A stretch of DNA of 64,000 nucleotides. Source: Elusimicrobiota bacterium. GTDB taxonomy: Bacteria > Elusimicrobiota > Elusimicrobia > UBA1565 > UBA9628. The notes below the pieces were generated by a model, which was given only the letters and a program-made list of their open reading frames with translations, did no database searches and was not told the origin of the DNA. The translations under genes and the position numbers were made by a program. The stretch lies in NCBI GenBank assembly GCA_016207605.1, contig JACQPJ010000016.1:2452-66451 (forward strand). Reading direction: 5' to 3'. Each line of letters begins with the position of its first letter. Position 1 is the stretch's first letter. Below, piece by piece: positions 25,820 to 38,911 of this stretch.

Positions 25820-27112
25820 GTGGCGGAGACGCTGGGACGGCTGAGGACGGCTCTGGGCGACCGCGGGGACTACGACGCGGCGGCGCAGTGCTCGCGCTGC
25901 GGCTACTGCGAGCAGGCCTGCCCGACCTACGTCGCGACGGGGCGGGAAGCGCAGTCGCCGCGGGGGCGGGCGCAGATCGTGCGCTTGATGCTGGAGGGAA
26001 AGCTCGACGATCCCGCGGCGGCCGAGGAGGCGCTCTCGACCTGCCTGCTCTGCGGGGCCTGCCAGACCGTCTGCTACGCCAAGGTGCCGGTGCCCGACCT
26101 CGCGCTGGAGGGGCGGCGGATGCTGCGGGGAAAGCCGCATTGGCTGGTGAGGCGGGCCTCGCGGCTTTTAATCGAGGATCCGCGGCGGCTGGCGGCTTTT
26201 CTGAAGATCGGCTATTTCTTCAAGCGCCTGGGGCTGTCCTGGCTTTCGGCGCCGTTGCTTCGGCTCGCCGGCCTGCCCGTTTTGGCCTCGATGGACGAGC
26301 ATGTCCGGGAGGCGCCGCGGCGGCTTCTCGACGACGAGCTGCCGGCCCTGCGCGCGGCGGGAGAGGGGGATGCCTGGCTGTACTTCGCTCCGTGCGGGCC
26401 GCGCTCTTTGTTTCCGCGCGTGGGCGCTGCGACGTGGCGCGCGCTGACGGCGCTGCGCGGCCCCGGGCGCTTTCTCGACAACGCGTGCTGCGGTCTGCTG
26501 GCGCACAATTACGGGGAACTGGAGGACGCGCGGACCTTGGCGCGGCGCAACATCGAGCGTGCGGAGGCGGCGGGCGAGGCGGAGGCGGTGGGGGATTGCT
26601 CGTCGTGCGTCGCGTTCCTGAAGACATATCCGCAGATGTTCCTGGGCGACGCCGACGCGGCCTGGCGGGAGCGGGCGGAGCGCTTCGCCGCGCGCGTGAA
26701 GGACGTCGTGGAGGTTTACGGCTCCTGCGCCGCGGGCTTGCCCGCGGCCGCGTCGGCGGGGACCGTCTCCTACCACGACTCCTGCCGGGCGCTCAACGGG
26801 CAGGGACTTCGGGACGAGCCGCGGCGGGCGGCGCGGGCGGCGGCGGGCGGGACGTTCGTCGAGATGCCGGACGCCGACGTTTGCTGCGGGGGGGCGGGGG
26901 CGTTCGCGTTCACGCATGAGGAGCTCTCGGACGAGATCCTTCGGCGCAAAGCGGGCGGCGCGGTCTCCATCGGGGCGAGGACGGTGCTCACCAGCTCCAC
27001 GTCGTGCCTGATCCAGCTTGCCCGCGGTTTTCGGAAATACTATCCTGACGCCACGGTGCTTCATCTCTCCGAATACGTCGCGCGGGCTCTGGACGGACGG
27101 CGTGGGGCGTAG
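25820..27112 (+). CDS. glcF: Glycolate-oxidase-type iron-sulfur subunit (GlcF-like, two 4Fe-4S motifs plus CCG domains); GTG start.
   Basis: CxxCxxCxxxCP ferredoxin motifs followed by cysteine-rich CCG-type repeats. Confidence 0.65.
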   Translation: MAETLGRLRTALGDRGDYDAAAQCSRCGYCEQACPTYVATGREAQSPRGRAQIVRLMLEGKLDDPAAAEEALSTCLLCGACQTVCYAKVPVPDLALEGRRMLRGKPHWLVRRASRLLIEDPRRLAAFLKIGYFFKRLGLSWLSAPLLRLAGLPVLASMDEHVREAPRRLLDDELPALRAAGEGDAWLYFAPCGPRSLFPRVGAATWRALTALRGPGRFLDNACCGLLAHNYGELEDARTLARRNIERAEAAGEAEAVGDCSSCVAFLKTYPQMFLGDADAAWRERAERFAARVKDVVEVYGSCAAGLPAAASAGTVSYHDSCRALNGQGLRDEPRRAARAAAGGTFVEMPDADVCCGGAGAFAFTHEELSDEILRRKAGGAVSIGARTVLTSSTSCLIQLARGFRKYYPDATVLHLSEYVARALDGRRGA

Positions 27113-27158
27113 GCAGGAGCTCGAGAAGAGACAGTCCCTCCTGGCGCGTTTCGGCCGC

Positions 27159-28259
27159 ATGGTCGCGGCCGAGACCCATCTCGACCGCCTTCTGACCATT
27201 ATCGCCGAGGAGGTGCGCAACATCCTCCTGGCCGACCGCTGCTCGGTCTTCCTCGTCGACGCCGCCAAGGGCGAGCTGTGGACCCGGGCGGCGGTGGGCG
27301 TGGAGGAGAAGGTCCTGCGCGTTCCCATCGGCCAGGGCGTGGCGGGCTTCGTGGCCAAGACCGGCTCTGCCGTCAACATCCGCGACGCCTACAAGGACAC
27401 GCGCTTCGCCCAGGACCTTGACCGCATCATCGGCTACCAGACGCGCACCGTGCTCGCCGTGCCCCTGCGCGGCCGCGACGGCAAGGCCCTGGGCGTCTTC
27501 GAGGTGCTCAACAAGGCCAAGGGGAACTTCACCGAGGAGGACGAGGGGCTCCTGCGCATCCTGGCCACGATGGCGGCCAGCTTCATCGAGAACGCGACCC
27601 TCTACGAAGACCTGCGCCGCTCCCACCTCGAGACCATCTACCGCATGGCGCTCGTCGCCGAGTTCCGCGACCAGGAGGACACCGGCCGCCACCTGCGCCG
27701 CATGAGCCGCTTCTCCGGCCTGCTCGCGCTCGGCGTCGGGCTTTCCGAGCGGGAGGCCGAGGAGATCCGCTACGCCGCCCCGCTCCACGACGTGGGCAAG
27801 GTCGCCATCCCCGACTCCATCCTGCGCAAGCCGGGCAAGCTCACGCCCGAGGAGTACGAGGAGATGAAGAAGCACACGGTCTACGGGGAGCGCATGCTCG
27901 CGCGCGCCGAGAGTCGCCTGCTGCGCCTGGCCGCCGCCATCGCGGTGGGCCACCACGAGTGCTGGGACGGCACGGGCTATCCTTACGGGCTCAAGGGCGA
28001 GAAGATCCCGCTGGAGGCGCGCATCGTGACCGTGGCCGACGTCTTCGACGCGCTCTCCTCCAAGCGCGTGTACAAGGGCGAGTGGAAGCCCGAGGACGCC
28101 CTGCGCTACATCGAGGAGCGCTCCGGCACCCTCTACGACCCCCAGGTGGTCGCGGCCCTGAGCCGGCGCTTTGCCGAGATCCTGCAGGCCCGCGACGAGG
28201 AGAACCGCCGCATGCTCGCCGACGAGGCCGCCGCGGCGCTTCTCCCCAAGTCCGCTTGA
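27159..28259 (+). CDS. GAF-domain HD-GYP phosphohydrolase (cyclic-di-GMP phosphodiesterase type).
   Basis: GAF region followed by HD...HHECWDGTGYP motifs. Confidence 0.75.
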   Translation: MVAAETHLDRLLTIIAEEVRNILLADRCSVFLVDAAKGELWTRAAVGVEEKVLRVPIGQGVAGFVAKTGSAVNIRDAYKDTRFAQDLDRIIGYQTRTVLAVPLRGRDGKALGVFEVLNKAKGNFTEEDEGLLRILATMAASFIENATLYEDLRRSHLETIYRMALVAEFRDQEDTGRHLRRMSRFSGLLALGVGLSEREAEEIRYAAPLHDVGKVAIPDSILRKPGKLTPEEYEEMKKHTVYGERMLARAESRLLRLAAAIAVGHHECWDGTGYPYGLKGEKIPLEARIVTVADVFDALSSKRVYKGEWKPEDALRYIEERSGTLYDPQVVAALSRRFAEILQARDEENRRMLADEAAAALLPKSA

Positions 28260-28284: not shown

Positions 28285-28358
28285 GCGGGCGTGGTTCATT
28301 GGTAGAACGGGTCCTTGCCAAGGATCAGACGGCGGTTCGATTCCGCTCGCCCGCTCCA
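28285..28358 (+). tRNA. tRNA-Gly (anticodon GCC), CCA encoded.
   Basis: Acceptor stem GCGGGCG/CGCCCGC, anticodon loop cuUGCCAag, T-loop GGTTCGATTCC; cloverleaf folded by eye. Confidence 0.9.
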
Positions 28359-29260: not shown

Positions 29261-29282
29261 GGAGACCTCGCTGGAAAACCGG

Positions 29283-29369
29283 CGGAAGGGGTGGGATTCG
29301 AACCCACGAGGGGCTTGCGCCCCTGGCAGTTTTCGAGACTGCTACCTTCAACCGCTCGGTCACCCTTCC
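29283..29369 (-). tRNA. tRNA-Ser (anticodon CGA), long variable arm, CCA not encoded.
   Basis: Reverse complement folds with acceptor GGAAGGG/CCCTTCC, anticodon loop cuCGAaa, variable arm, T-loop GGTTCGAATCC. Confidence 0.85.
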
Positions 29370-29459
29370 GTGAACGACGGAGCATTATAGCAGAAGCGCC
29401 GTTTGCTCCATAAAATTTGGATAATAGGGCTCCGCCCGACGGTCCATGAGGTTGAAACG

Positions 29460-31325
29460 ATGACCCCCGAGGAAGCCCTGCGCCGCCGGTGGGGCTACGG
29501 TTCCTTCCGGCCTCTTCAAAAAGAAGCGGTCGAGGCCGCGCTCTCCGGGCGCGACGCGCTGGTCGTCCTGCCCACGGGCGGGGGCAAAAGCCTTTGCTAT
29601 CAACTGCCGGCGGCCATGGGGCGGGGGCTGGTTCTGGTCGTTTCGCCGCTCATCGCGCTGATGGACGACCAGGTGGCGGCGGCGCGCGAGGCGGGGCTGG
29701 CCGCGGATGCATTGCATTCCAACCTGGAAGCCGACGGCCGCGGCGAGGCTTATCGGCGCTTGGCCGCGGGAACGACCGAGCTTCTGTACGTGAGCCCGGA
29801 GCGGCTTCTGGTGGGGGATCTTTTGGAGGACGTTGCCGCGCGGCTTATTTTGATTGCGGTCGACGAGGCGCACTGCGTCTCCCATTGGGGCCACGAGTTC
29901 CGGCCCGAGTACCGCCGCCTGGCCGAGGTCCTGGAGCGCTTCCCCAAGGCGGCGCGCATGGCGCTGACCGCCACGGCCACGCCCGTCGTCCAAGACGACA
30001 TCCGCGCCCAGCTCGCCCTGCGCGAGCCTCTGCGCCTGGTCGGTCATCCCGACCGCGCCAACCTGATCTACCGCGCCTTCCCGCGCCGGGACCAGTCGGG
30101 ACAGGTTTTAGATGTCGTGCGCCGCCATCCCGGCGAGGGCGGAATCGTGTACGCGCAGACGCGCAAGGACGTCGACCGCCTGGCCGCGGGATTAAGAAAG
30201 GCCGGGGTTTCCTGCGCGGCCTACCACGCCGGCCTGCCCGCCGAGCAGAGGCGGCGCGCCCAGGACGACTTCGTCAACGAGCGGCTCGACGTGGTCGCGG
30301 CGACGATCGCCTTCGGCATGGGCATCGACCGCTCCAACGTCCGCTACGTGGTGCACGCCAACACGCCGCGCTCGGTCGAGCACTACCAGCAGGAGTCGGG
30401 CCGCGCGGGCCGCGACGGCCTGCCGGCGGAGTGCGTGCTGCTTTTCTCGGCGTCCGACCTCGTCCTGCACCGATGGCTGGCGCAGAAGGACGGGGCGCTG
30501 GCGCCCGAGCGCCGGCGCGCGCTTGAGCGCCAGCTCCGGGAGATCGGCCGCTACGCCGCGGCCCCGGTCTGCCGGCATCGCCTGCTCGTCGAGCACTTCG
30601 GCGCGGCGTACGCGGCGGGCGGCGAGGGCTGCGCCGCCTGCGACGTCTGCCTGGGCGAGACGAAGAGCCTCTCCGACGACGAGGCCCTGCTCGCGGCCAA
30701 AAAAGTCCTCAGCGCGGCCTGGCGGACGGAGGGCCGCTTCGGCGCGGGCTACGTCGTCGATCTTCTCGTGGGCCGCGCCGACGAGCGCATGCGCCGCAAC
30801 GACCACGACGCGCTCAAGGTCTTCGGGATCCTCAAGGACGCCGGCCAGGCGACGGCGCGCTCCTGGATCGACCAGCTCATCGTGCAGGGTTTTTTAGAGA
30901 CGGCCGAGAGCGGGGACTATCCTCTCCTGCGCATCACCCAGGCCGGCAAGGAGCTCTGCGGCGGTCAAGGGACGGTGCGGCTGGGAGTGCCGGCCGTGCC
31001 GCGCGACCGCGCGCGCGCGAAGACGAAATCCCGTTCCGCCGCCGGCCGGGGGCCGTCCGGCGCGCCGGCCGACGAGGAGCTCTTCGAGCGTCTGCGCCGC
31101 CTGCGGCGGCTGATCGCCCAGAAGCAGGGCGTGCCGCCCTACGTGGTCTTCCACGACAGCGCCCTGCTCGAGATGGCCGCGCTCAAGCCGGGCACGCTCG
31201 ACGCCCTGGGAGGCGTCAAGGGCGTGGGCGAGCGCAAGCTCGCGCGCTACGGCGCGGCTTTCCTCAAGGCGATCGCGGGCGGGAGCCCGGAGGCCGCCGC
31301 GGCGTCCCCGGCCGCTCCATCATAG
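29460..31325 (+). CDS. recQ: ATP-dependent DNA helicase RecQ.
   Basis: Helicase motifs (PTGGGKS, DEAH), RecQ zinc-binding region, C-terminal HRDC. Confidence 0.85.
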   Translation: MTPEEALRRRWGYGSFRPLQKEAVEAALSGRDALVVLPTGGGKSLCYQLPAAMGRGLVLVVSPLIALMDDQVAAAREAGLAADALHSNLEADGRGEAYRRLAAGTTELLYVSPERLLVGDLLEDVAARLILIAVDEAHCVSHWGHEFRPEYRRLAEVLERFPKAARMALTATATPVVQDDIRAQLALREPLRLVGHPDRANLIYRAFPRRDQSGQVLDVVRRHPGEGGIVYAQTRKDVDRLAAGLRKAGVSCAAYHAGLPAEQRRRAQDDFVNERLDVVAATIAFGMGIDRSNVRYVVHANTPRSVEHYQQESGRAGRDGLPAECVLLFSASDLVLHRWLAQKDGALAPERRRALERQLREIGRYAAAPVCRHRLLVEHFGAAYAAGGEGCAACDVCLGETKSLSDDEALLAAKKVLSAAWRTEGRFGAGYVVDLLVGRADERMRRNDHDALKVFGILKDAGQATARSWIDQLIVQGFLETAESGDYPLLRITQAGKELCGGQGTVRLGVPAVPRDRARAKTKSRSAAGRGPSGAPADEELFERLRRLRRLIAQKQGVPPYVVFHDSALLEMAALKPGTLDALGGVKGVGERKLARYGAAFLKAIAGGSPEAAAASPAAPS

Positions 31326-31952
31326 CGGCGGCCTCGGCCGGAAGCGGGCGCCCAGGGACGCGGCGAGGCGCTCCACGGCCTCCAGGTCCACGCCGGGCTG
31401 GTCCACGGCCGTCACCGTCGTCTCCAGGCCGTGGAGGACGCAGGCGGCGGTGAAGTCCAGGACGGCCCGGAACCCAGCCGCGGCGTAGCGGCGCCGAGGC
31501 GCGTGCAGGCGGATCCACTGCGCCGGGTCGGCCGTGTTGAGGCTGACGGAGACCGCGTCAAGCGCGTCCGCCAGCTCGGGGACGATGTCCCTCTCCCAGA
31601 GGAGGCTGCCCAGCCCGATGGTGTTGAGGCGCAGGCGCAGGTCCGGCGCGCAGCGCCGGGCGCGCCGGCTGACGCCCAGGACGGCGTCCAGGCGGTACGT
31701 GCATTCTCCATAGCCGCAGAACACGAGCTCGCGCGAGGCCGTCTCCTCCAGCCGGCCTCGCGCGGCGTCCCAGGCTTCGGCGGCGGAGGGCTCCTCGCGG
31801 CCCAGCTTCAGATCGCGGCCGCGAAAGTCCCACCGCCACGCGCGCTTGACGCAGAAGCGGCAGGCGACCGGACAGCGGTTGGTGAGGTTGAGGTAGACCG
31901 CCCCGGCGTGAACGTAGGCGATCGCTCCCTGATCCCGCATGAACCGGAACAT
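31320..31952 (-). CDS. Radical SAM domain protein.
   Basis: CPVACRFC (CxxxCxxC) motif near the N-terminus; start chosen at MFRFM. Confidence 0.5.
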   Translation of the reverse strand: MFRFMRDQGAIAYVHAGAVYLNLTNRCPVACRFCVKRAWRWDFRGRDLKLGREEPSAAEAWDAARGRLEETASRELVFCGYGECTYRLDAVLGVSRRARRCAPDLRLRLNTIGLGSLLWERDIVPELADALDAVSVSLNTADPAQWIRLHAPRRRYAAAGFRAVLDFTAACVLHGLETTVTAVDQPGVDLEAVERLAASLGARFRPRPPL

Positions 31953-32304
31953 GGCGCAACGATCCGGCCCGTCGTTGGCAGATTCGTTGCCGTACCTGGG
32001 GGCCATCGAGCGGCGAGGCCGCGCGGCGCGCTTGCTCGGCGTCGCGCGCTGGGACCGCGCCGACGGCGAGGACCGGGCGCGGCTGGCGGTCACGGTCCGC
32101 GACGGATGGCACGGCCGCGGGATCGGCTCATTTCTGATCCGGATGCTGGCGCGTCATGCGCGGCGGCAGGGGCTGGCGGGCCTGCGCGCGGAGTACGGCG
32201 CGGGCAACTCCGGAATGGAGGCCGCGGCTCGCGCGGCCGGCGGCCGCACGCGCCCCATCGGCCGCGGGTGGCGCGAGGCGGCTTGGGAGCTGTCCCGGGG
32301 CTAA
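31939..32304 (+). pseudogene. GNAT acetyltransferase C-terminal half, probably truncated.
   Basis: Motif A (HGRGIGSFLIRML) present but too little N-terminal sequence; 5' end abuts or overlaps the radical SAM gene on the opposite strand. Confidence 0.35.
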
Positions 32305-32313
32305 GGAGCCGCG

Positions 32314-33531
32314 TCAGCGCTTCCGGCGGGGCTTGCGGGCGGGGGCCGGCGAGACGCCGGCGGCGATCTCGGGCGGCAGGTCGCCGGCCTCGATCTGCGG
32401 TCCGGCGGCCATGATGAGGGCGCGCTCGACGGCGTGCTCGAGCTCGCGCACGTTGCCGGGCCAGGCGTAGGCGCCGAGGGCCCTGACCGCGTCCGGGGAG
32501 AACTGGGAGCCCGGCGAGCCCGTCCGCACGCGGGCCTTCTTGAGGAAGGACTCGGCCAGCGGAAGCACGTCCTCGATCCGCTCGCGCAGGGGGGGGATCT
32601 CGATGGGGAACACCTTGAGGCGGTAGTAGAGGTCCTCCCGGAACTTGCCCTCGGCCACGAGCTTGCGCAGGTCCCGGTTGGAGGCGGCGACCACGCGCGC
32701 CGAGACCTTGATGGGGTGGTTGTCGCCGACGCGGCGGATCTCTCCCTCCTGCAGCGCGCGCAGGAGCTTGACCTGCAGGCCCGGCGTCGTCTCGGTCACC
32801 TCGTCGAGGAAGAGGGTGCCGCCGGAGGCCTCCTCGAAGAGGCCGCGCTTGTTGCGGTCGGCGCCCGTGAAGGAGCCCTTGACGTGTCCGAAGAGTTCGC
32901 TTTCCAGCAGGCCCTCGGGCAGGGCGCCGCAGTTGAGGGCGACGAAGGAGCCGTCGCGCCGGGGGGAGTTCTCGTGGATGGCGCGGGCGACGAGCTCCTT
33001 GCCCGTGCCGGACTCGCCGGTCACGAGCACGGTGGCGTCCGTCGCCGCGACCTTGGCCACCAGCGCGAGGACGCGGCGCATGGCCGCGCTGGCCGAGACG
33101 ATGCGGGAGAACCCCAGCCCTTCCTTCAGCTCGGCGCGCAGGCGCCGGACCTCGCCCAGCAAGTCCCGGTGCTCGATGGACTTGCGCAGGGCCAGGGCCA
33201 GCTCCTCGGGCTCCACCGGCTTGGTCAGGTAGTCGAAGGCGCCGGCCTTCATCGCGGCGACCGCGGTGTCGATGGAGCCGTGCCCGGTGATGACGATCAC
33301 CCCGGTCTCGGGCTGGCTGGCGCGCGCCGCGGCCAGCACCTGCAGGCCGTCGCCGGCGCCCAGGCGCAGGTCGGTGACGACCGCGTCGAAGATCTCCTTT
33401 TCCACGCGCGCGGCCGCGGCCGCGGCCCGCGTCTCCGACTCGACCAGGAAGCCGCGCCGCTTCAGCTCGAGGGAGAACAGCGCCGCCTGCGCGGGGTCGT
33501 CTTCGACCAGCAGGATCCGCTTTTCATCCAT
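32314..33531 (-). CDS. Sigma-54-dependent response regulator (receiver plus AAA+ sigma-54 activation domain), apparently lacking the C-terminal DNA-binding HTH.
   Basis: Receiver Asp pocket, GESGTGKE Walker A, GAFTGA-like (GSFTGA) motif, ESELFGH; ORF ends about 30 aa after the AAA domain. Confidence 0.8.
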   Translation of the reverse strand: MDEKRILLVEDDPAQAALFSLELKRRGFLVESETRAAAAAARVEKEIFDAVVTDLRLGAGDGLQVLAAARASQPETGVIVITGHGSIDTAVAAMKAGAFDYLTKPVEPEELALALRKSIEHRDLLGEVRRLRAELKEGLGFSRIVSASAAMRRVLALVAKVAATDATVLVTGESGTGKELVARAIHENSPRRDGSFVALNCGALPEGLLESELFGHVKGSFTGADRNKRGLFEEASGGTLFLDEVTETTPGLQVKLLRALQEGEIRRVGDNHPIKVSARVVAASNRDLRKLVAEGKFREDLYYRLKVFPIEIPPLRERIEDVLPLAESFLKKARVRTGSPGSQFSPDAVRALGAYAWPGNVRELEHAVERALIMAAGPQIEAGDLPPEIAAGVSPAPARKPRRKR

Positions 33532-33537
33532 GAAGGC

Positions 33538-34629
33538 TCACCCGGGGGCCGTCGGCAGCAGCAGGGTGAAGGCGGCGCCGCGGCCCGGCTCGCTCTCCAG
33601 TTCGATGCGCCCGCCGTGCGCGCGCGCGATGCGCTCGGCGATGGCCAGGCCCAGGCCGGTGCCGTGCGACTTGGTCGTCTTGAAGGGCTGGAAGATCTCC
33701 TCGCGCGCGGCGGCCGGCACGCCCGGCCCGTCATCCTGGACGCGAAGGAACGCGAAGCCCTCCCGGCGCCCGGTTGCGATGCGCACCAGGCCGCGTCCCT
33801 CGACGGCCTGCGCCGCGTTGAGGGCGATGTTCCAGGCGACCTGGCGAATCTGGTCCGGGTCGAAGCGGAAGGGCTCCAGCTCCGCGTCGAAGGCGGTCTC
33901 CAGCCGGGGCCGCGCGCCGCTGCCGGCGGCCAGGATGCGCGCGATCTCCCCCGCCAGGGCGTTGAGGTCGGCGCGCTCGAGCTTGAGGGGGCGCGGCCTG
34001 GCGTAGGCCAGGAAGTTGGTCAGGGTCTCGTTGAGGCGCGAGCTCTCGTCGCGGAGGATCTTGAGGACCAGGGCGCGGTCTTCCTCCGTCAGGGTTTCTC
34101 CGGCGAGCTGGCGCGCGGCCATGACGATGGAGCCGAGCGGGTTGCGGATTTCGTGCGCGACCACGGCCGCCATCTGGCCGAGTTGGGCCAGCGCCTCGGA
34201 CTGCGCGACGCGCTCCTGGAGCCGGCGCAGCTCGCCGACGTCGACCGCGTTGGAGATGTAGCCGACGATCTCGCCGCGTTCGTCGCGCACGGCCGTGATC
34301 GTGAGGACGATCGGGATTTCCCGCCCGTCCTTGGCGCGGTTGACCAGCTCGCCGCGCCAGAAGCCGACGGCGGGGTCGAGAATCCGCCGCCACATCCCCG
34401 CGTAGATCTCGGGGGTGGTGTGGCGCGAGCGCAGGATGCGCGGGTTGCGTCCCACGGCCTCGGCGCGGGTCCAGCCGTAGTGGCGCGTGAACGCCTCGTT
34501 GACGTCCAGGATCGTTCCCTCGCGATCGCAAAAAAACATGACGTCGTTGGAGTTCTTGAAGGCCTGGTAAAGCGTGAGAGCCAGCTTGTGCTCGCCGCTG
34601 CCGGGGCCGGGTTCTCGCGTTCTGGTCAT
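33538..34629 (-). CDS. PAS-domain sensor histidine kinase (NtrB-like), cytoplasmic.
   Basis: PAS region, H-box VAHEIRNPL, HATPase_c; 6-nt gap to the downstream response regulator. Confidence 0.75.
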   Translation of the reverse strand: MTRTREPGPGSGEHKLALTLYQAFKNSNDVMFFCDREGTILDVNEAFTRHYGWTRAEAVGRNPRILRSRHTTPEIYAGMWRRILDPAVGFWRGELVNRAKDGREIPIVLTITAVRDERGEIVGYISNAVDVGELRRLQERVAQSEALAQLGQMAAVVAHEIRNPLGSIVMAARQLAGETLTEEDRALVLKILRDESSRLNETLTNFLAYARPRPLKLERADLNALAGEIARILAAGSGARPRLETAFDAELEPFRFDPDQIRQVAWNIALNAAQAVEGRGLVRIATGRREGFAFLRVQDDGPGVPAAAREEIFQPFKTTKSHGTGLGLAIAERIARAHGGRIELESEPGRGAAFTLLLPTAPG

Positions 34630-34710
34630 ATTGTTGCTATAGTATCTTGGGTAAAGGCTTGGAAGCGCCGAGAGGATACTAGCGTTTCCGGAGGCCTCCG
34701 GCCACATCCC

Positions 34711-35790
34711 ATGGAACAGAAGCTTGGCTTGCGCGTGGAGCAGAGGCTGGCGATCCTGGGCCGCCTGCGCATGGCGGACTGGATCGAGATGCCCGAGAGC
34801 GAGTTCGCCCGGCAGGTCCGGCGCGTGGAGAAGGACCCGCTTTTTCGCAAGCTCTATTTCGGCGCGCCGGACCTGCCGCCCGCCATACGCCGCCAGCGCT
34901 GGCCGGGGGGCCGCCTGGCCTCGAGCTTCTACGCGGTGGACGAGGGCCGCGTCTCCGCCGGCGAGCGGGTGGACGTCGAGGGGACGCTGGACGCCCGCAG
35001 GGAGCTGCTCGCGGTCATCCGCCGCATGGGCCGTCCCGCTTTCGAACGGTACTTCCTCAACGCCGAGGAGGCCGTCTCTCTGCCCGAGATCGCCCGGCGC
35101 ACCGGCCTGAGCGATGAGGAGGCGCGCGGCGTCAACGACCTTCTGCTGGAGATCGGAGCCCAAGCCGAGTTCGCCGGCGCCCCCAAGACCGCCCCGGCCG
35201 TTCCCGGCGTGGCCTGCCTGGCGCGCCTGGTCCGCGAGGGGGACAAGATCGCCTTTGAGTTCGAGGCGCCCTACTGGGCGCGCGGGCGCTATCAACTGCG
35301 CTACGACGACCTGGAGACATGGAAGGCGTCGGGCCGGCTTACCGGGGGAGAACGCCGCCGCCTGCGCCACCTGCTCAAGCGCCTGGAGACCTTGAACCTG
35401 CGCCAAAGCGCGATCTTCCGCATCCTGGAGTCCTTTGGGACGATCCAGGCGGACTATCTGCGCACGCGCCGTCCGCAGGACCTGCGCCCGGTCAGCCTGC
35501 GCCTGCTGGCGCGGCGCCTCCAACTGTCCCCGAGCACCGTCAGCCGCGCCTTGTCGCACCGCGCCGTGGCCCTGCCCTGGGGAACGCGGGTCCCGATGAT
35601 CGCCCTCGTCCCCGGCCAGCGCCGCGTGCTCAAGGAGGTCCTCTCCCGCTGGCTTCGGGCGGCTCCCTCCGCCACCGACGCCGAGTTCACTCGGCGCTTC
35701 AAGACGGAGCGCGGCATCAGCGTGTCCCGACGCACCGTCAACGCGGTGCGCCACGCCCTGCTCGATCAGCCGGGGTCCGACGATGAATGA
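34711..35790 (+). CDS. rpoN: RNA polymerase sigma-54 factor, unusually short (359 aa).
   Basis: Region I (LGLRVEQRLAILGRL...), C-terminal HTH (LSPSTVSRAL) and RpoN-box-like GISVSRRTVNAVRHAL. Confidence 0.65.
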   Translation: MEQKLGLRVEQRLAILGRLRMADWIEMPESEFARQVRRVEKDPLFRKLYFGAPDLPPAIRRQRWPGGRLASSFYAVDEGRVSAGERVDVEGTLDARRELLAVIRRMGRPAFERYFLNAEEAVSLPEIARRTGLSDEEARGVNDLLLEIGAQAEFAGAPKTAPAVPGVACLARLVREGDKIAFEFEAPYWARGRYQLRYDDLETWKASGRLTGGERRRLRHLLKRLETLNLRQSAIFRILESFGTIQADYLRTRRPQDLRPVSLRLLARRLQLSPSTVSRALSHRAVALPWGTRVPMIALVPGQRRVLKEVLSRWLRAAPSATDAEFTRRFKTERGISVSRRTVNAVRHALLDQPGSDDE

Positions 35791-36223
35791 GCCGCGGGGC
35801 GCGGGGATCCGCACGGCGGCGGACTTGATGCGCCCCCTGGCCGTCGTTTTGCGGGAGGACGAGGACGCCTGGGGCGCGGCGCGGCGCCTCTTCGAGGCGG
35901 GCCAGACCGGAGCCCCGGTGCTGGGCGCCGACGGTCGCCTGGCCGGCGTCCTTTCCCAGTCCGACGTCGCCGCCTACCTGCGCGACTGCACGCGCCGCGC
36001 CCAGGACTTCTACGCCGAGCCCGAGCACGATCCCATCGCCGCGCGCCCTTGCGCGACCGTCGGCCAGCTCATGTCCCGCGTCCTCGTCCAGGTGGAGGAG
36101 GACCTCCCGCTCGACGAGGTCGAGCGCCACATGCTCCGCCGCCGCGTCCAGCGCGTCCTGGTGGTGCGCGACGGCCAAGCCCTCGGCGCCATCGCCGCCA
36201 TCGACCTCCTGCGCGTGCGGTAG
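35783..36223 (+). CDS. CBS-domain pair protein.
   Basis: Two CBS-like repeats; start overlaps the rpoN stop. Confidence 0.6.
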   Translation: MNEPRGAGIRTAADLMRPLAVVLREDEDAWGAARRLFEAGQTGAPVLGADGRLAGVLSQSDVAAYLRDCTRRAQDFYAEPEHDPIAARPCATVGQLMSRVLVQVEEDLPLDEVERHMLRRRVQRVLVVRDGQALGAIAAIDLLRVR

Positions 36224-36243
36224 AGGCGCCCCCGCGCGGGCGC

Positions 36244-36362
36244 GCCGCCGTCGGCCTTCCCCCGTCGAGGACGCGGCGGATCGACCGCCGCTCGGGTTCC
36301 GGCGCGGCCGCGGGCCATCGCCGCGCCTCCACACGCCTCGCCGGGGGAAGGCCGACGGCGGC
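36244..36362. other. Structured element: a 21-bp perfect long-range inverted repeat (36244-36264 pairing with 36342-36362) enclosing 77 nt that hold two further hairpins (36273-36291 and 36301-36327).
   Basis: Read from the sequence; located between the convergent CBS gene (+) and nrdJ (-). Confidence 0.45.
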
Positions 36363-36391
36363 CTACCAGGACGCAGGCGGGCACCGCCCCC

Positions 36392-38911
36392 TTAAGCGCA
36401 GTTCGAGTAGCCGCAGTCGTGGCAGGTCGGCCCCGAGCAGCCCGATTCGAAGGAGACGTTGGAGGAATAGCACGCGGGACAGTGCTCCAGCGTCGGGCGC
36501 GGAGCCGCCGCCGCCGCGGGGAGGGCGCCGCCGGACCCCTCCGGGGTCCAGCCGGTTTTTTTCAGGTGCGCGCGCAGGGCGATGGCGATGGCATGCGGGA
36601 TGGAATCCACGCGCGAGGCGCCCAGGCCGATGGGGCGGTCGCCCTTGATGGAGTTGAGGTGCTTGAGCAGCGCGAGCGGGCTGCCGCCTTGGGCCAGGTA
36701 TTTCGAGATGAGGATGCCGACCAGCGAGGCCAGCCCCGAGATCTCGGTGCCCAGCGGAGGGATGTTGGCGAAGAGCTGGAGAGGCCCGAGCTCGTCATAG
36801 TTGACGTGGAGGTGCAGGGGGCCGTAGCCGGTGCGGATGAGATAGTACTCCGAGGCCAGGCCGAAAGCGCTCTCCGGGACGCGGCGCCGGGCCTTGGACG
36901 GGGTCGGCGCCAGGCTCAAGACCTGCTGGGCCTTGGAGCCGTCGCGGTAGATCGTGATCCCCTTGCAGCCGAGCTCGTAGGCCATCTGGTAGGCGCGGCG
37001 CACGTCCTCGACGGAGGCGCCGGCGGGCATGTTGACGGTCTTGGAGACTCCGTTGTCGGTGTGGCGCTGGAACGCGGCCTGCATGCCCACGTGGGCCTCG
37101 GGGGAGACGTCGTGGGCGGTCGCGAAGACGCGCTGGATCTGCTCCGGGATCGCGCCGAGGCCGCGCACGGAGCCGTGGTTGTCGGCGACGCGCCGCCAGA
37201 GCGTCTTTTCCCCGAGCCCGAACCAGTCCTGACGCTCCGCGGCCTGGCGCAGGAGCGGGTTGACCTCGAAGAAGACGTCCTGCTCAGCGGCCTCCCGGCC
37301 CTGCTTGGCGGCCTCGAGCGCCTTGGCGTTGCGGCGGACGTAGGCGGCCGCGAAGAAGGGCTCGATGCCTCCGCCCTGGAGGCCGGCCGCGATGGCGATC
37401 GTCCCGGTCGGGGCGATGGTGGTGCGGGCGCAGTGGCGCGGGTGGCGCTCCTCGCCGCGGAAATGCGTCGAGGCGGGGTCGTAGATCGAGTCCGTCCAGT
37501 TGGGGAACACCCCGCGCTCCTTGGCCAGGGTCTCGGAGGCCTCCAGCGCCGCCCCATTGACGGCCGACATCACCTGGTCGGCCGCGGCCAGCGCCTCGGG
37601 AGAGTCGTAGGGCAGGCCCAGCTTGACCAGGGCCTCGGCCCAGCCCATCACGCCCAGCCCGATGCGCCGGTTGCCCTTGGCCAGGGCCTCGATCTCCGGC
37701 AGGGGGTAGTTGTTGACCTCGATGACGTCGTCGAGGAAGCGCACGGCGAGGGTCACGGCTTCCTTGAGGCGCGGGAAGTCGAAGCGGCCGGCCAAGGGCT
37801 CGCCGGCGACGAAATGGGACAGGTTCAGGGAGCCCAGGTTGCAGGCCTCCCAGGGCAGCAGCGGCTGCTCCCCGCAGGGGTTGGTGCTCTCGATGCGCCC
37901 CAGCGCCGGGGTGGGGTTGGACCCGGACTCGTTGATGCGGTCGAGGACCACGTAGCCCGGATCGCCGGTCCTCCAGGCGGACTCGCACATCGCGTCGAAG
38001 ACTTCCTTGGCGCGGGCCTTGCCCGCGGGCTCGCCGGTGCGGGGATTGACCAGGTCGTACTCGGCGTCGGCCAAGGCCGCCTTCATGAACGCGGCGTCCA
38101 CGCCCACGGAGATGTTGAAGTTCTCCAGGACGCCGGGCTTCTGCTTCATGCGGATGAAGTCCATGATCTCGGGATGATCGCAGCGCAGGATGGCCATGTT
38201 GGCGCCCCGCCGCGTGCCGCCCTGCTTGACCACGTCCGTCATCGTGTCGAAAAGGCGCATGAAGGAGAGCGCGCCCGAGGCGAGCCCCTGGGTCTGCATC
38301 ACCGCGTCGCCCGCGGGCCGCAGGCGGGAGAAGGAGAAGCCGGTCCCGCCCCCCGATTTCTGGATCAAGGACTGGGCGGCCAGGGCCGCCACGATGCCCT
38401 CCATCGAGTCGGGGACCGGAAGGACGTAGCAGGCCGAAAGTTGCTGGAGGTCGCGGCCGGCGTTCATCAGGGTGGGGGAATTGGGCAGGAAATCCCAGCG
38501 CCCCATCAGCGCCTGGAAGCGCTCGGCCCATTCCTCGCGCCGCCGCCGGGCCTCCGGGATCGCGGCGCAGACTCCCTCCAGATTGGCCATGAGCCGCCGG
38601 AAGTTTGCTTGGCGCGCTTCCAGGCTCCGGCCGCCGGCGTGATAGAGGAGGACGCGGGAGGACGGCGCGGGGCCCGCCGCGGGCACGGGAGCGACGCGGC
38701 GCTCCACGCCCTCGAAGACGCCCCAAGACTCGGCTTCTGGCGCGACAAGGACCTCGGCCAGCGCGATATTGTCGGCCACGCCCTTGAGCCAGGACTCCAC
38801 GGAGGGGGCGTCCCGGAGGTACTTGTCCTTGATGACTTTTCGTTGATTCTCGGAAAGACGGATTTCCGAGGCGGCCGCCGCGCGGGTTCCCGACGTCTTG
38901 TGATGGGTCAT
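36392..38911 (-). CDS. nrdJ: Class II (adenosylcobalamin-dependent) ribonucleotide reductase.
   Basis: N-terminal LSENQRKVIKDKYL, 839 aa, C-terminal Cys-rich zinc-ribbon tail typical of NrdJ. Confidence 0.85.
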   Translation of the reverse strand: MTHHKTSGTRAAAASEIRLSENQRKVIKDKYLRDAPSVESWLKGVADNIALAEVLVAPEAESWGVFEGVERRVAPVPAAGPAPSSRVLLYHAGGRSLEARQANFRRLMANLEGVCAAIPEARRRREEWAERFQALMGRWDFLPNSPTLMNAGRDLQQLSACYVLPVPDSMEGIVAALAAQSLIQKSGGGTGFSFSRLRPAGDAVMQTQGLASGALSFMRLFDTMTDVVKQGGTRRGANMAILRCDHPEIMDFIRMKQKPGVLENFNISVGVDAAFMKAALADAEYDLVNPRTGEPAGKARAKEVFDAMCESAWRTGDPGYVVLDRINESGSNPTPALGRIESTNPCGEQPLLPWEACNLGSLNLSHFVAGEPLAGRFDFPRLKEAVTLAVRFLDDVIEVNNYPLPEIEALAKGNRRIGLGVMGWAEALVKLGLPYDSPEALAAADQVMSAVNGAALEASETLAKERGVFPNWTDSIYDPASTHFRGEERHPRHCARTTIAPTGTIAIAAGLQGGGIEPFFAAAYVRRNAKALEAAKQGREAAEQDVFFEVNPLLRQAAERQDWFGLGEKTLWRRVADNHGSVRGLGAIPEQIQRVFATAHDVSPEAHVGMQAAFQRHTDNGVSKTVNMPAGASVEDVRRAYQMAYELGCKGITIYRDGSKAQQVLSLAPTPSKARRRVPESAFGLASEYYLIRTGYGPLHLHVNYDELGPLQLFANIPPLGTEISGLASLVGILISKYLAQGGSPLALLKHLNSIKGDRPIGLGASRVDSIPHAIAIALRAHLKKTGWTPEGSGGALPAAAAAPRPTLEHCPACYSSNVSFESGCSGPTCHDCGYSNCA

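Follow-up and report, generated by a model that had tools for sequence, protein, structure and literature searches.

The window analysed here, a stretch of 64,000 nucleotides (G+C content about 70%) from an Elusimicrobiota bacterium (contig JACQPJ010000016.1), encodes a small protein of the σ54 family next to a histidine kinase and a bacterial enhancer-binding protein (bEBP). The gene is a member of a large, unannotated family that is under selection and occurs mostly in Elusimicrobia, and it is not a one-off. When considered together with its neighbours and with the promoter-like elements around it, it probably codes for a genuine, strongly reduced σ54-type factor that belongs to a self-contained, autoregulated and activator-gated σ/kinase/bEBP cassette. 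Four genes make up the locus:

32314-33531, minus strand: response-regulator bEBP of 405 amino acids, with REC, Sigma54_activat and AAA_lid_14 domains
33538-34629, minus strand: cytoplasmic PAS histidine kinase of 363 amino acids, with Pfam PAS_4, HisKA and HATPase_c domains
34711-35790, plus strand: reduced σ54-family gene (359 amino acids, ATG start), with a Pfam Sigma54_DBD match at residues 226-292
35783-36223, plus strand: CBS-pair gene (146 amino acids) with two Pfam CBS copies, overlapping the σ stop codon by 8 nt

The kinase gene, which starts with an ATG whose complement is the CAT at 34627-34629, lies 6 nt upstream of the activator gene and forms one operon with it, and the σ-CBS pair is divergent from both. 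The CBS gene is probably co-transcribed with the σ gene, and it stands directly 3' of it in every locus of clade A, as the window's own clade (69-77% σ identity) is called here. An earlier, sequence-only reading of this DNA had described the same layout, with a divergent PAS histidine kinase and σ54 activator on one side and a CBS-pair gene after the σ gene on the other, and the Pfam domains and coordinates confirm it. No second bEBP and no second σ54 motif is present elsewhere in the 64-kb window. The σ protein itself is 100% identical to the NCBI entry “hypothetical protein HY552_01860”, from an Elusimicrobia metagenome-assembled genome (MAG).

Among the curated models, Pfam Sigma54_DBD (PF04552) is matched by the σ protein with 46.6 bits against a cutoff of 22.8, and by all 43 of the 43 family members tested. 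Sigma54_AID (PF00309) and Sigma54_CBD (PF04963) match neither the window protein nor those 43 members, even at E ≤ 10, and the NCBIfam equivalog model TIGR02395 gives 51.1 bits, below its threshold of 277.35. Since the TIGR02395 cutoff is missed and the AID and CBD models fail, the name rpoN is unsuitable, and the gene is better described as coding for a reduced σ54-family factor; the sequence-only reading, which had named it rpoN, was right about the open reading frame (ORF) and about its relationship to σ54, and wrong only about its name (51 versus 277 bits). The most distant family members also match the DBD model alone, without PF04963, and the member L081 reaches 86 bits over positions 15-158 of the 160 in PF04552. 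When the family profile was compared with the sequences of the PDB, σ54 chains were the sole matches, over residues 204-353 only. An AlphaFold2 model of the protein, built from a 43-sequence alignment (pLDDT 80.3, pTM 0.77), retrieved σ54 chains as all of its top 27 Foldseek matches in the PDB, with about 250 columns aligned.

More of the protein is seen when profiles are compared with profiles. With BLASTP, or with hhalign when the family profile is set against E. coli RpoN as a single sequence, the DBD alone is visible; E. coli residue 230 and Region I came into view only with a canonical alignment of seven sequences (E. coli, Priestia, Prevotella, Aquicella, Rhizobium, Ralstonia and Salipiger) and a family alignment of 95 sequences, the most distant at about 23% identity. 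With these two profiles, hhalign equates family residues 122-359 with E. coli 230-477 (probability 99.7, E = 2e-26), a span that covers the end of the core-binding domain (CBD), the β element before the extra-long helix (ELH), the ELH itself, the helix-turn-helix (HTH) and the RpoN domain. At the other end of the protein, residues 1-44 are colinear with E. coli 1-46 when the N-terminal parts are aligned alone (32% identity, E = 6.7e-4), and the score of this alignment, 23.3, compares with 8.35 ± 1.6 (maximum 15.5) for column shuffles, 0 of 200 of which reach it. A search with the canonical hidden Markov model (HMM) against sequences by hmmsearch leaves the same region near 0 bits and non-significant. 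The Region I-like N-terminus thus appears real but weak; the earlier claim that Region I is kept holds in the profile-profile alignment, where the score exceeds all shuffles, and fails with Pfam, whose AID model finds no match. The companion claim, that the C-terminal HTH and the RpoN box are kept, is borne out by the Sigma54_DBD match and by the motif SRRTVNAVRH.

Between these aligned parts, family residues 45-121 find no hhalign match in E. coli 47-229, and only the last 30 or so residues of the CBD, which in E. coli spans residues 120-250 and consists of two helical subdomains, align to the canonical proteins. The interval from Region I to the equivalent of E. coli residue 230 measures 68-82 residues in the family, as against 103-115 CBD residues plus 28-82 Region II residues (139-207 in total) in the seven canonical proteins, and since it is so short a hidden full CBD is ruled out. 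As judged from these alignments, the shortening has removed Region II and, from the start of the CBD, about 100 residues, which are replaced by a conserved, family-specific segment of about 40 basic and aromatic residues and a compact helical domain. The alignment check suggested with the original reading has therefore turned up no full-length core-binding domain, and the deficit, put there at about 100 amino acids, amounts to 118 relative to E. coli RpoN (477 amino acids) and 77 relative to Priestia RpoN (436 amino acids). Along the protein, the following parts can be told apart:

34711-34854, plus strand: Region I-like N-terminus (residues 1-48), with helices at 3-26, 29-41 and 43-50 and a conserved E-x-D-P-L-F
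34858-34971, plus strand: segment peculiar to the family (residues 50-87), found where canonical proteins have Region II and the first CBD subdomain, and containing the invariant IRRQRWPGGR motif (R61, W64)
34972-35166, plus strand: five-helix domain (residues 88-152, pLDDT above 90), whose last two helices correspond to E. coli 230-260
35206-35301, plus strand: β element (residues 166-197), corresponding to E. coli 270-302 (YVIPDVLVRKHNGHWTVELN...)
35344-35445, plus strand: ELH (residues 212-245), whose R231 and Q246 stand at the positions of E. coli R336 and Q351
35485-35556, plus strand: HTH (residues 259-282, ...LSPSTVSRAL), the predicted reader of the -12 element, with R279 invariant across the 95-sequence alignment
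35617-35763, plus strand: RpoN domain (residues 303-351), with the RpoN-box variant SRRTVNAVRH at 35725-35754

The HTH has the sequence LRLLARRLQLSPSTVSRAL, and the RpoN box reads SRRTVNxYR as a consensus across the family. Six residues that are invariant or nearly so, R231, Q246, R279, R340, R341 and R347, have as their E. coli counterparts R336, Q351, R383, R455, R456 and R462, respectively. In the small helical domain, G107 is invariant and F111 and F115 are conserved. Residues 1-165 modelled on their own with AlphaFold2 (pLDDT 79) gave no significant Foldseek match in the PDB and no CBD, the weak matches (best E 0.29) being σ70 region-4-like.

The family to which this protein belongs is large. 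In a database clustered at 90% identity, 207 relatives were found at E ≤ 0.001, with 51-79% identity, and the best 120 of these 207 are about 340-365 amino acids long, except for one of 407. When 1.84 billion representatives were searched exhaustively with a profile, no fewer than 256 clusters at 50% identity had E < 1e-30; nearly all of the best 150 of these 256 cover the full profile, at lengths of 345-390 amino acids. Members that carry a name are Elusimicrobia, including Candidatus Obscuribacterium magneticum, except for one cluster that bears the label Candidatus Omnitrophota. When one genome per GTDB species was scanned, 76 loci came up, all of them from Elusimicrobia(ota) or from MAGs without a label. 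The proteins are known to NCBI as “hypothetical protein”, and some bear the JGI labels “AraC-like”, “XRE-family” or “transposase”; a literature search found no paper that describes the family or links Elusimicrobia to a short σ54. Six assemblies contain two copies (L025/L032, L051/L062, L058/L063, L050/L066, L064/L067 and L038/L043). Three σ copies (L059, L062 and L063) have neither kinase nor bEBP within 6 kb, yet they keep the upstream GG-N10-GC element; at another locus (L068), two copies lie in tandem at 21-1115 and 1141-2217, the second being very divergent, and the copy in the complete genome CP096137.1 looks frameshifted (L054:6001-7509).

The regulatory surroundings of the σ gene are conserved as well. 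In 53 of 68 loci, the stretch 40-110 nt ahead of the σ start contains a GG-N8-TTGC element (TTGGCCGGAATATTGCTAC), and the 54 unique σ-gene sites give the consensus TTGGCCGgaaTaTTGCTAcaat. In the window, two features occupy the intergenic region:

34622-34642, plus strand: -24/-12 promoter-like element CTGGTCATATTGTTGCTATAG, with GG at 34624-34625 and GC at 34636-34637, 74 nt before the σ ATG
34674-34703, no strand assigned: conserved box GGATACTAGCG (ATT[CG]TAGCG in relatives) and palindrome CCGGAGGCCTCCGG, in the σ 5' leader

The CAT within the CTGGTCATATTGTTGCTATAG element is the start codon of the kinase on the opposite strand, and across the 11 loci of clade A the string GG..CAT....GTTGCTA is invariant, the flanking sequence not. 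A matrix derived from the family's sites scores 25.0 bits at 34622-34642, its top match in the 64-kb window. The canonical pattern that had been suggested for a promoter search, TGGCAC-N5-TTGCW with up to two mismatches, proved uninformative in the window (16 matches versus 18.8 expected). Over the 864 kb of related loci, the family matrix finds 127 sites of at least 16 bits, compared with 1-3 in first-order Markov controls, and 71 of the 127 are not upstream of a σ gene. The 48 unique sites outside the σ-kinase intergenic region have the consensus TGGCCGtTtcGTTGC; such sites recur right after the σ stop codon and right after the bEBP gene, and the ORFs downstream of them include a stand-alone REC protein (by Pfam) and, by eye, YceI-, HemA-, acetyl-CoA hydrolase-, Usp-, HSP20- and CBS-like proteins. 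Recognition of GG-N10-GC by the reduced σ is thus predicted, with indirect support from the enrichment of the sites and from the conservation of the DNA-contact residues.

In the clade whose bEBPs carry an HTH, an inverted partner on the minus strand, TTGGCCnnnnTGTTCC (22 unique sites, with TGTTCC replacing TTGC), faces the σ promoter. Since the spacing between the two varies (29-47 nt between coordinates), the partner is best read as a second promoter-like element aimed at the kinase operon and not as one half of a single protein's palindrome. Overlapping face-to-face pairs within 110 nt upstream of the σ start were seen in L022, L028, L029, L033, L036, L038-L047, L050, L055, L065, L069 and others, and only one holoenzyme at a time could find room on such a pair. 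The box GTGTTCCATTTTGTAGCAAAT of the 55-59% identity clade was considered as a third -24/-12 site and rejected, its GG-to-GC spacing being 8 or 11 by eye, and not 10. A subclade of about 53% identity (L048, L049, L052, L053 and L061), with HTH-less bEBPs, has no GG-N8-TTGC upstream of the σ gene and shows conserved TTTTAGCAAATTAT ... AACATCTGCTA(A/C)AC boxes instead. As for the leader of the σ gene, the box GGATACTAGCG lies about 40 nt past the -12 element, and the palindrome CCGGAGGCCTCCGG, which contains the GGAGG before the σ ATG, is kept in relatives with other letters (GGACCTCCGGGTCC, CCGGAGCGTCCGG). For positions 34674-34703, three roles are conceivable: a leader hairpin over the ribosome-binding site, which it would mask; a site bound by a protein; and a -10 element on the minus strand (CGCTAGTAT) for the kinase operon.

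The activator that accompanies the σ gene is a typical AAA+ bEBP in all but its C-terminus. Its domains are REC at residues 6-115 (33187-33516), Sigma54_activat at 144-311 (32599-33102) and AAA_lid_14 at 316-396 (32344-32586); PF00158 is matched with 237.6 bits over positions 1-168 of 168, with the Walker A motif GESGTGKE at 32998-33018 and the L1 loop GSFTGA at 32860-32877. The protein of 405 residues ends 9 residues past AAA_lid_14, which closes at residue 396, and the Fis-type HTH_8 model (PF02954) finds no match at E ≤ 1; nor does the DNA past the stop codon hold a cryptic HTH in the three frames of the bEBP strand, as inspected by eye without an HMM scan. The earlier statement that the activator ends after its AAA+ domain without a Fis-type HTH therefore stands.

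When the window's four proteins were searched against the six-frame ORFs of all related loci, the divergent kinase-bEBP operon was found beside the σ gene in nearly every locus with sufficient flank, and even in the variant arrangements (L025, L060, L068 and L081) a kinase and a bEBP are still nearby. The tail after the AAA+ lid measures 0-14 residues in all clade-A orthologues and 50-64 residues in the 55-59% clade, where HTH_8 is confirmed by Pfam in L002, and it is short again in several loci of 53% identity and in L026. Within this single orthologous group, the bEBP has apparently shed its DNA-binding domain on more than one occasion, in some clades only, and because orthologues in sister clades still carry HTH_8, its loss would be independent, recurrent and recent. 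The Omnitrophota-labelled member of the σ family (L088/L089, 8001-9086; family-profile E 1.3e-62), put at roughly 27% identity, lies in an operon with Peptidase_S24, NTP_transf_5, PqqD and radical SAM/SPASM proteins, which looks like a peptide-maturation system, as well as a HAMP kinase and a bEBP with HTH_8. In seven loci (L039:3456(-), L044:2621(-), L028:3373(-), L064:2805(-), L056:2982(-), L022:722(-) and L026:3565(-)), a stand-alone REC gene of 115-126 amino acids follows directly downstream of the bEBP, with a strong GG-N10-GC site ahead of it. In most cases its start codon falls some 13-16 nt past the GC, and in L056 and L026 as far as about 27 nt past it, which would make the mRNA almost leaderless.

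In σ54-dependent transcription, Region I is the target of the activator, the HTH reads the -12 element and the RpoN box reads the -24 element. The parts on which this mechanism depends are those kept here: a Region I-like N-terminus, an ELH with the equivalents of R336 and Q351, the HTH and the RpoN box. In the proposed cassette, the PAS kinase would phosphorylate the REC domain of the bEBP, whose hexamer, by means of its GSFTGA loops, would remodel RNA polymerase carrying the small σ at GG-N10-GC promoters, and one such promoter would drive the σ-CBS operon and thereby create positive feedback. The residual helical domain and the IRRxRWP segment would stand in for the missing core-binding surface. 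The HTH-less bEBP of clade A would resemble FlgR and CtcC in activating from solution and needing no enhancer, an arrangement that may be tolerable if it serves a small, dedicated set of promoters. The -24 element encloses the start codon of the kinase gene, and a closed complex formed on it would therefore also block transcription of the kinase-bEBP operon.

Several points weigh against this proposal, even though we consider it the probable one. The greater part of the CBD (E. coli 120-229) is missing, which leaves binding to core RNA polymerase a prediction; a review from which the E. coli domain boundaries are also taken regards the CBD as the most conserved feature of σ54 (PMC5095919). The isolated N-terminal model finds no significant structural match, its best E being 0.29. 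A canonical rpoN, if present in the same genomes, could be the true reader of the promoters, and the -12 part of the element, TTGCTAnnAT, resembles an extended -10, so that the element could repress rather than activate. A σ gene wholly dependent on its own product also needs a source of basal expression, and there are only two good matrix sites in the 64-kb window.

The strongest of the alternatives, which appears unlikely on balance, is that the protein is an accessory paralogue without core binding: a canonical RpoN would read the promoters, and the short protein would bind the -24/-12 elements or titrate the bEBP through its Region I. The absence of all of Region II and of about 100 CBD residues would fit such a role, and so would an N-terminal model unlike any solved CBD, the fact that the DNA-reading parts are the best conserved, and the presence of two copies in some genomes, as expected of specialised regulators. 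However, the Region I-like N-terminus, the R336 equivalent and the β element before the ELH are conserved as well, without an obvious role outside a holoenzyme, and the replacement segment is itself strongly constrained, with R61, W64, G107, F111 and F115 invariant or nearly so. In the window and the 80 related loci, 864 kb that make up a small sample and a tiny part of each genome, there is no canonical-length σ54, hpf or ptsN, and the ABC ATPases are generic, none being a true LptB. Moreover, Elusimicrobium minutum was scored as lacking both σ54 and bEBPs (Francke et al. 2011, PMC3162934), so that members of the phylum need not possess a canonical copy.

A different alternative, which concerns only the upstream element and which we regard as less probable still, is negative autoregulation: the housekeeping holoenzyme would use the extended -10-like TGCTAnnAT, and a σ54-type protein bound to the overlapping GG-N10-GC, be it alone or together with polymerase, would shut the gene off. 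Negative autoregulation of rpoN has been reported in some Proteobacteria. In the σ-gene sites, the -12 is followed by TAcaAT, which gives TGCTACAAT or TGCTATAGT, an extended -10 look-alike; the look-alike is specific to these sites, the other sites being unconserved after TTGC, and an arrangement of this kind would also solve the bootstrapping problem. Against it, there is no -35 partner at σ70 spacing, TTGGCC lies only 10 nt from the TAnnAT hexamer, and a simple promoter and terminator scan of 31800-36500 was empty of σ70-type -35/-10 pairs, its yield being one weak terminator-like site. GG-N10-GC also occurs ahead of other genes, where repression alone makes no sense. Finally, it is barely credible that the gene is a decaying rpoN remnant, either a pseudogene or a mis-called ORF, in a lineage losing σ54: the protein is shorter than every canonical protein compared and is annotated as hypothetical everywhere, but the conservation data contradict this idea, with hundreds of full-length homologues of constant length and invariant functional residues, a confident AlphaFold2 fold, and conserved synteny and promoter.

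If the reduced protein is indeed a σ54-type factor, it can be set beside the canonical one (E. coli/Klebsiella and Aquifex aeolicus; PDB 5NWT and 5UI5), with which it shares the C-terminal two-thirds, the DNA-contact arginines, the R336 equivalent, apparently a Region I-like helix pair, the linkage to an AAA+ bEBP and the GG-N10-GC elements in its loci. In contrast to the canonical factor, it is without Region II and about 100 CBD residues and has the 40-residue basic/aromatic segment instead; its gene adjoins its own kinase and bEBP, whereas E. coli rpoN stands in an lptB-rpoN-hpf-ptsN context, and it has a σ54-type site of its own and occurs in two copies in some genomes.

As in NtrB/NtrC-type pairs (AtoS/AtoC, ZraS/ZraR), a single operon encodes first a PAS-HisKA-HATPase kinase and then a REC-AAA+ regulator, but membrane and nitrogen-sensing features are missing from the window kinase and a Fis-type HTH from its regulator, and the pair is dedicated to an adjacent private σ gene. 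The best NCBIfam matches of the bEBP are AtoC and NtrC, all below cutoff. FlgR of Helicobacter pylori and CtcC of Chlamydia, which we take to activate without an enhancer, likewise consist of REC and AAA+ domains ending after the lid and work with a cognate kinase. The window bEBP is not an orthologue of FlgR, since the FlgR model (NCBIfam NF049963) scores 297 against a cutoff of 750, below AtoC, NtrC and ZraR; the likeness to FlgR and CtcC appears convergent. Of the resemblance noted in the sequence-only reading, then, the architecture holds as an analogy, and orthology to FlgR does not, the orthologues in sister clades still carrying HTH_8. In logic, and not by homology, a parallel is offered by autoregulated extracytoplasmic function (ECF) σ cassettes, in which a σ factor sits beside its own signalling partner, has its own cognate promoter and can occur as several paralogous cassettes per genome; they differ in that they involve an unrelated protein family and an anti-σ factor rather than an ATP-driven activator.

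What is new here is a large, unannotated family that forms private σ/kinase/activator cassettes. There is, in addition, an appreciable if tentative possibility that the family represents the only σ54 of free-living Elusimicrobia (and some neighbours), a natural minimal σ54 that would bind core polymerase through a new IRRxRWP/helical module, needing neither Region II nor the N-terminal CBD subdomain, and work in private, autoregulated cassettes, at times two to a genome and at times with -24/-12 promoters that face each other. In that case, surveys that use the three Pfam models would wrongly score Elusimicrobia lineages as σ54-free; a 2025 regulon survey, for instance, defines σ54 by PF00309, PF04963 and PF04552 together (PMC12316311), a definition under which the family would fail because only PF04552 of the three matches. 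That lineages carrying the family are mis-scored as being without σ54 is, in our view, likely. In the solved holoenzymes, Region II threads through the polymerase cleft and the RNA exit path. A selected family that keeps a Region I-like part, the ELH-HTH unit and the RpoN box while dropping Region II and most of the CBD would amount to a natural deletion experiment, one that would define the minimum for enhancer-dependent transcription or reveal a new way of docking on core polymerase. The one-to-one σ/kinase/bEBP cassette, whose σ gene carries a σ54-type site, together with the repeated loss of the bEBP HTH, would also make a tractable system for studying the evolution of enhancer independence.

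The second good matrix site of the window lies on the far side of the activator gene:

31975-31994, plus strand: second GG-N10-GC site TTGGCAGATTCGTTGCC, matrix score 17.2 bits, also matched by the canonical pattern

The TTGGCAGATTCGTTGCC site falls in the 5' part of an ORF of 121 amino acids (31939-32304, plus strand) with weak Acetyltransf_1/3 matches, a GNAT fragment, which is convergent with the 3' end of the bEBP gene. This ORF could be what is left of a gene whose σ54-type promoter is either live or fossil. Among the further neighbours, listed at 27018-28259 (+), 29403-31325 (+), 31320-31952 (-) and 36392-38911 (-), are a radical SAM protein, confirmed by Pfam, and, by eye, a GAF plus HD-GYP-like protein, a RecQ helicase and a class II ribonucleotide reductase. 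A tRNA-Gly(gcc) and a tRNA-Ser(cga) are also present, with listed coordinates of 28285-28358 (+) and 29281-29369 (-), and the G+C content of the window falls to about 0.60 at 4-6 kb and at 56-58 kb.

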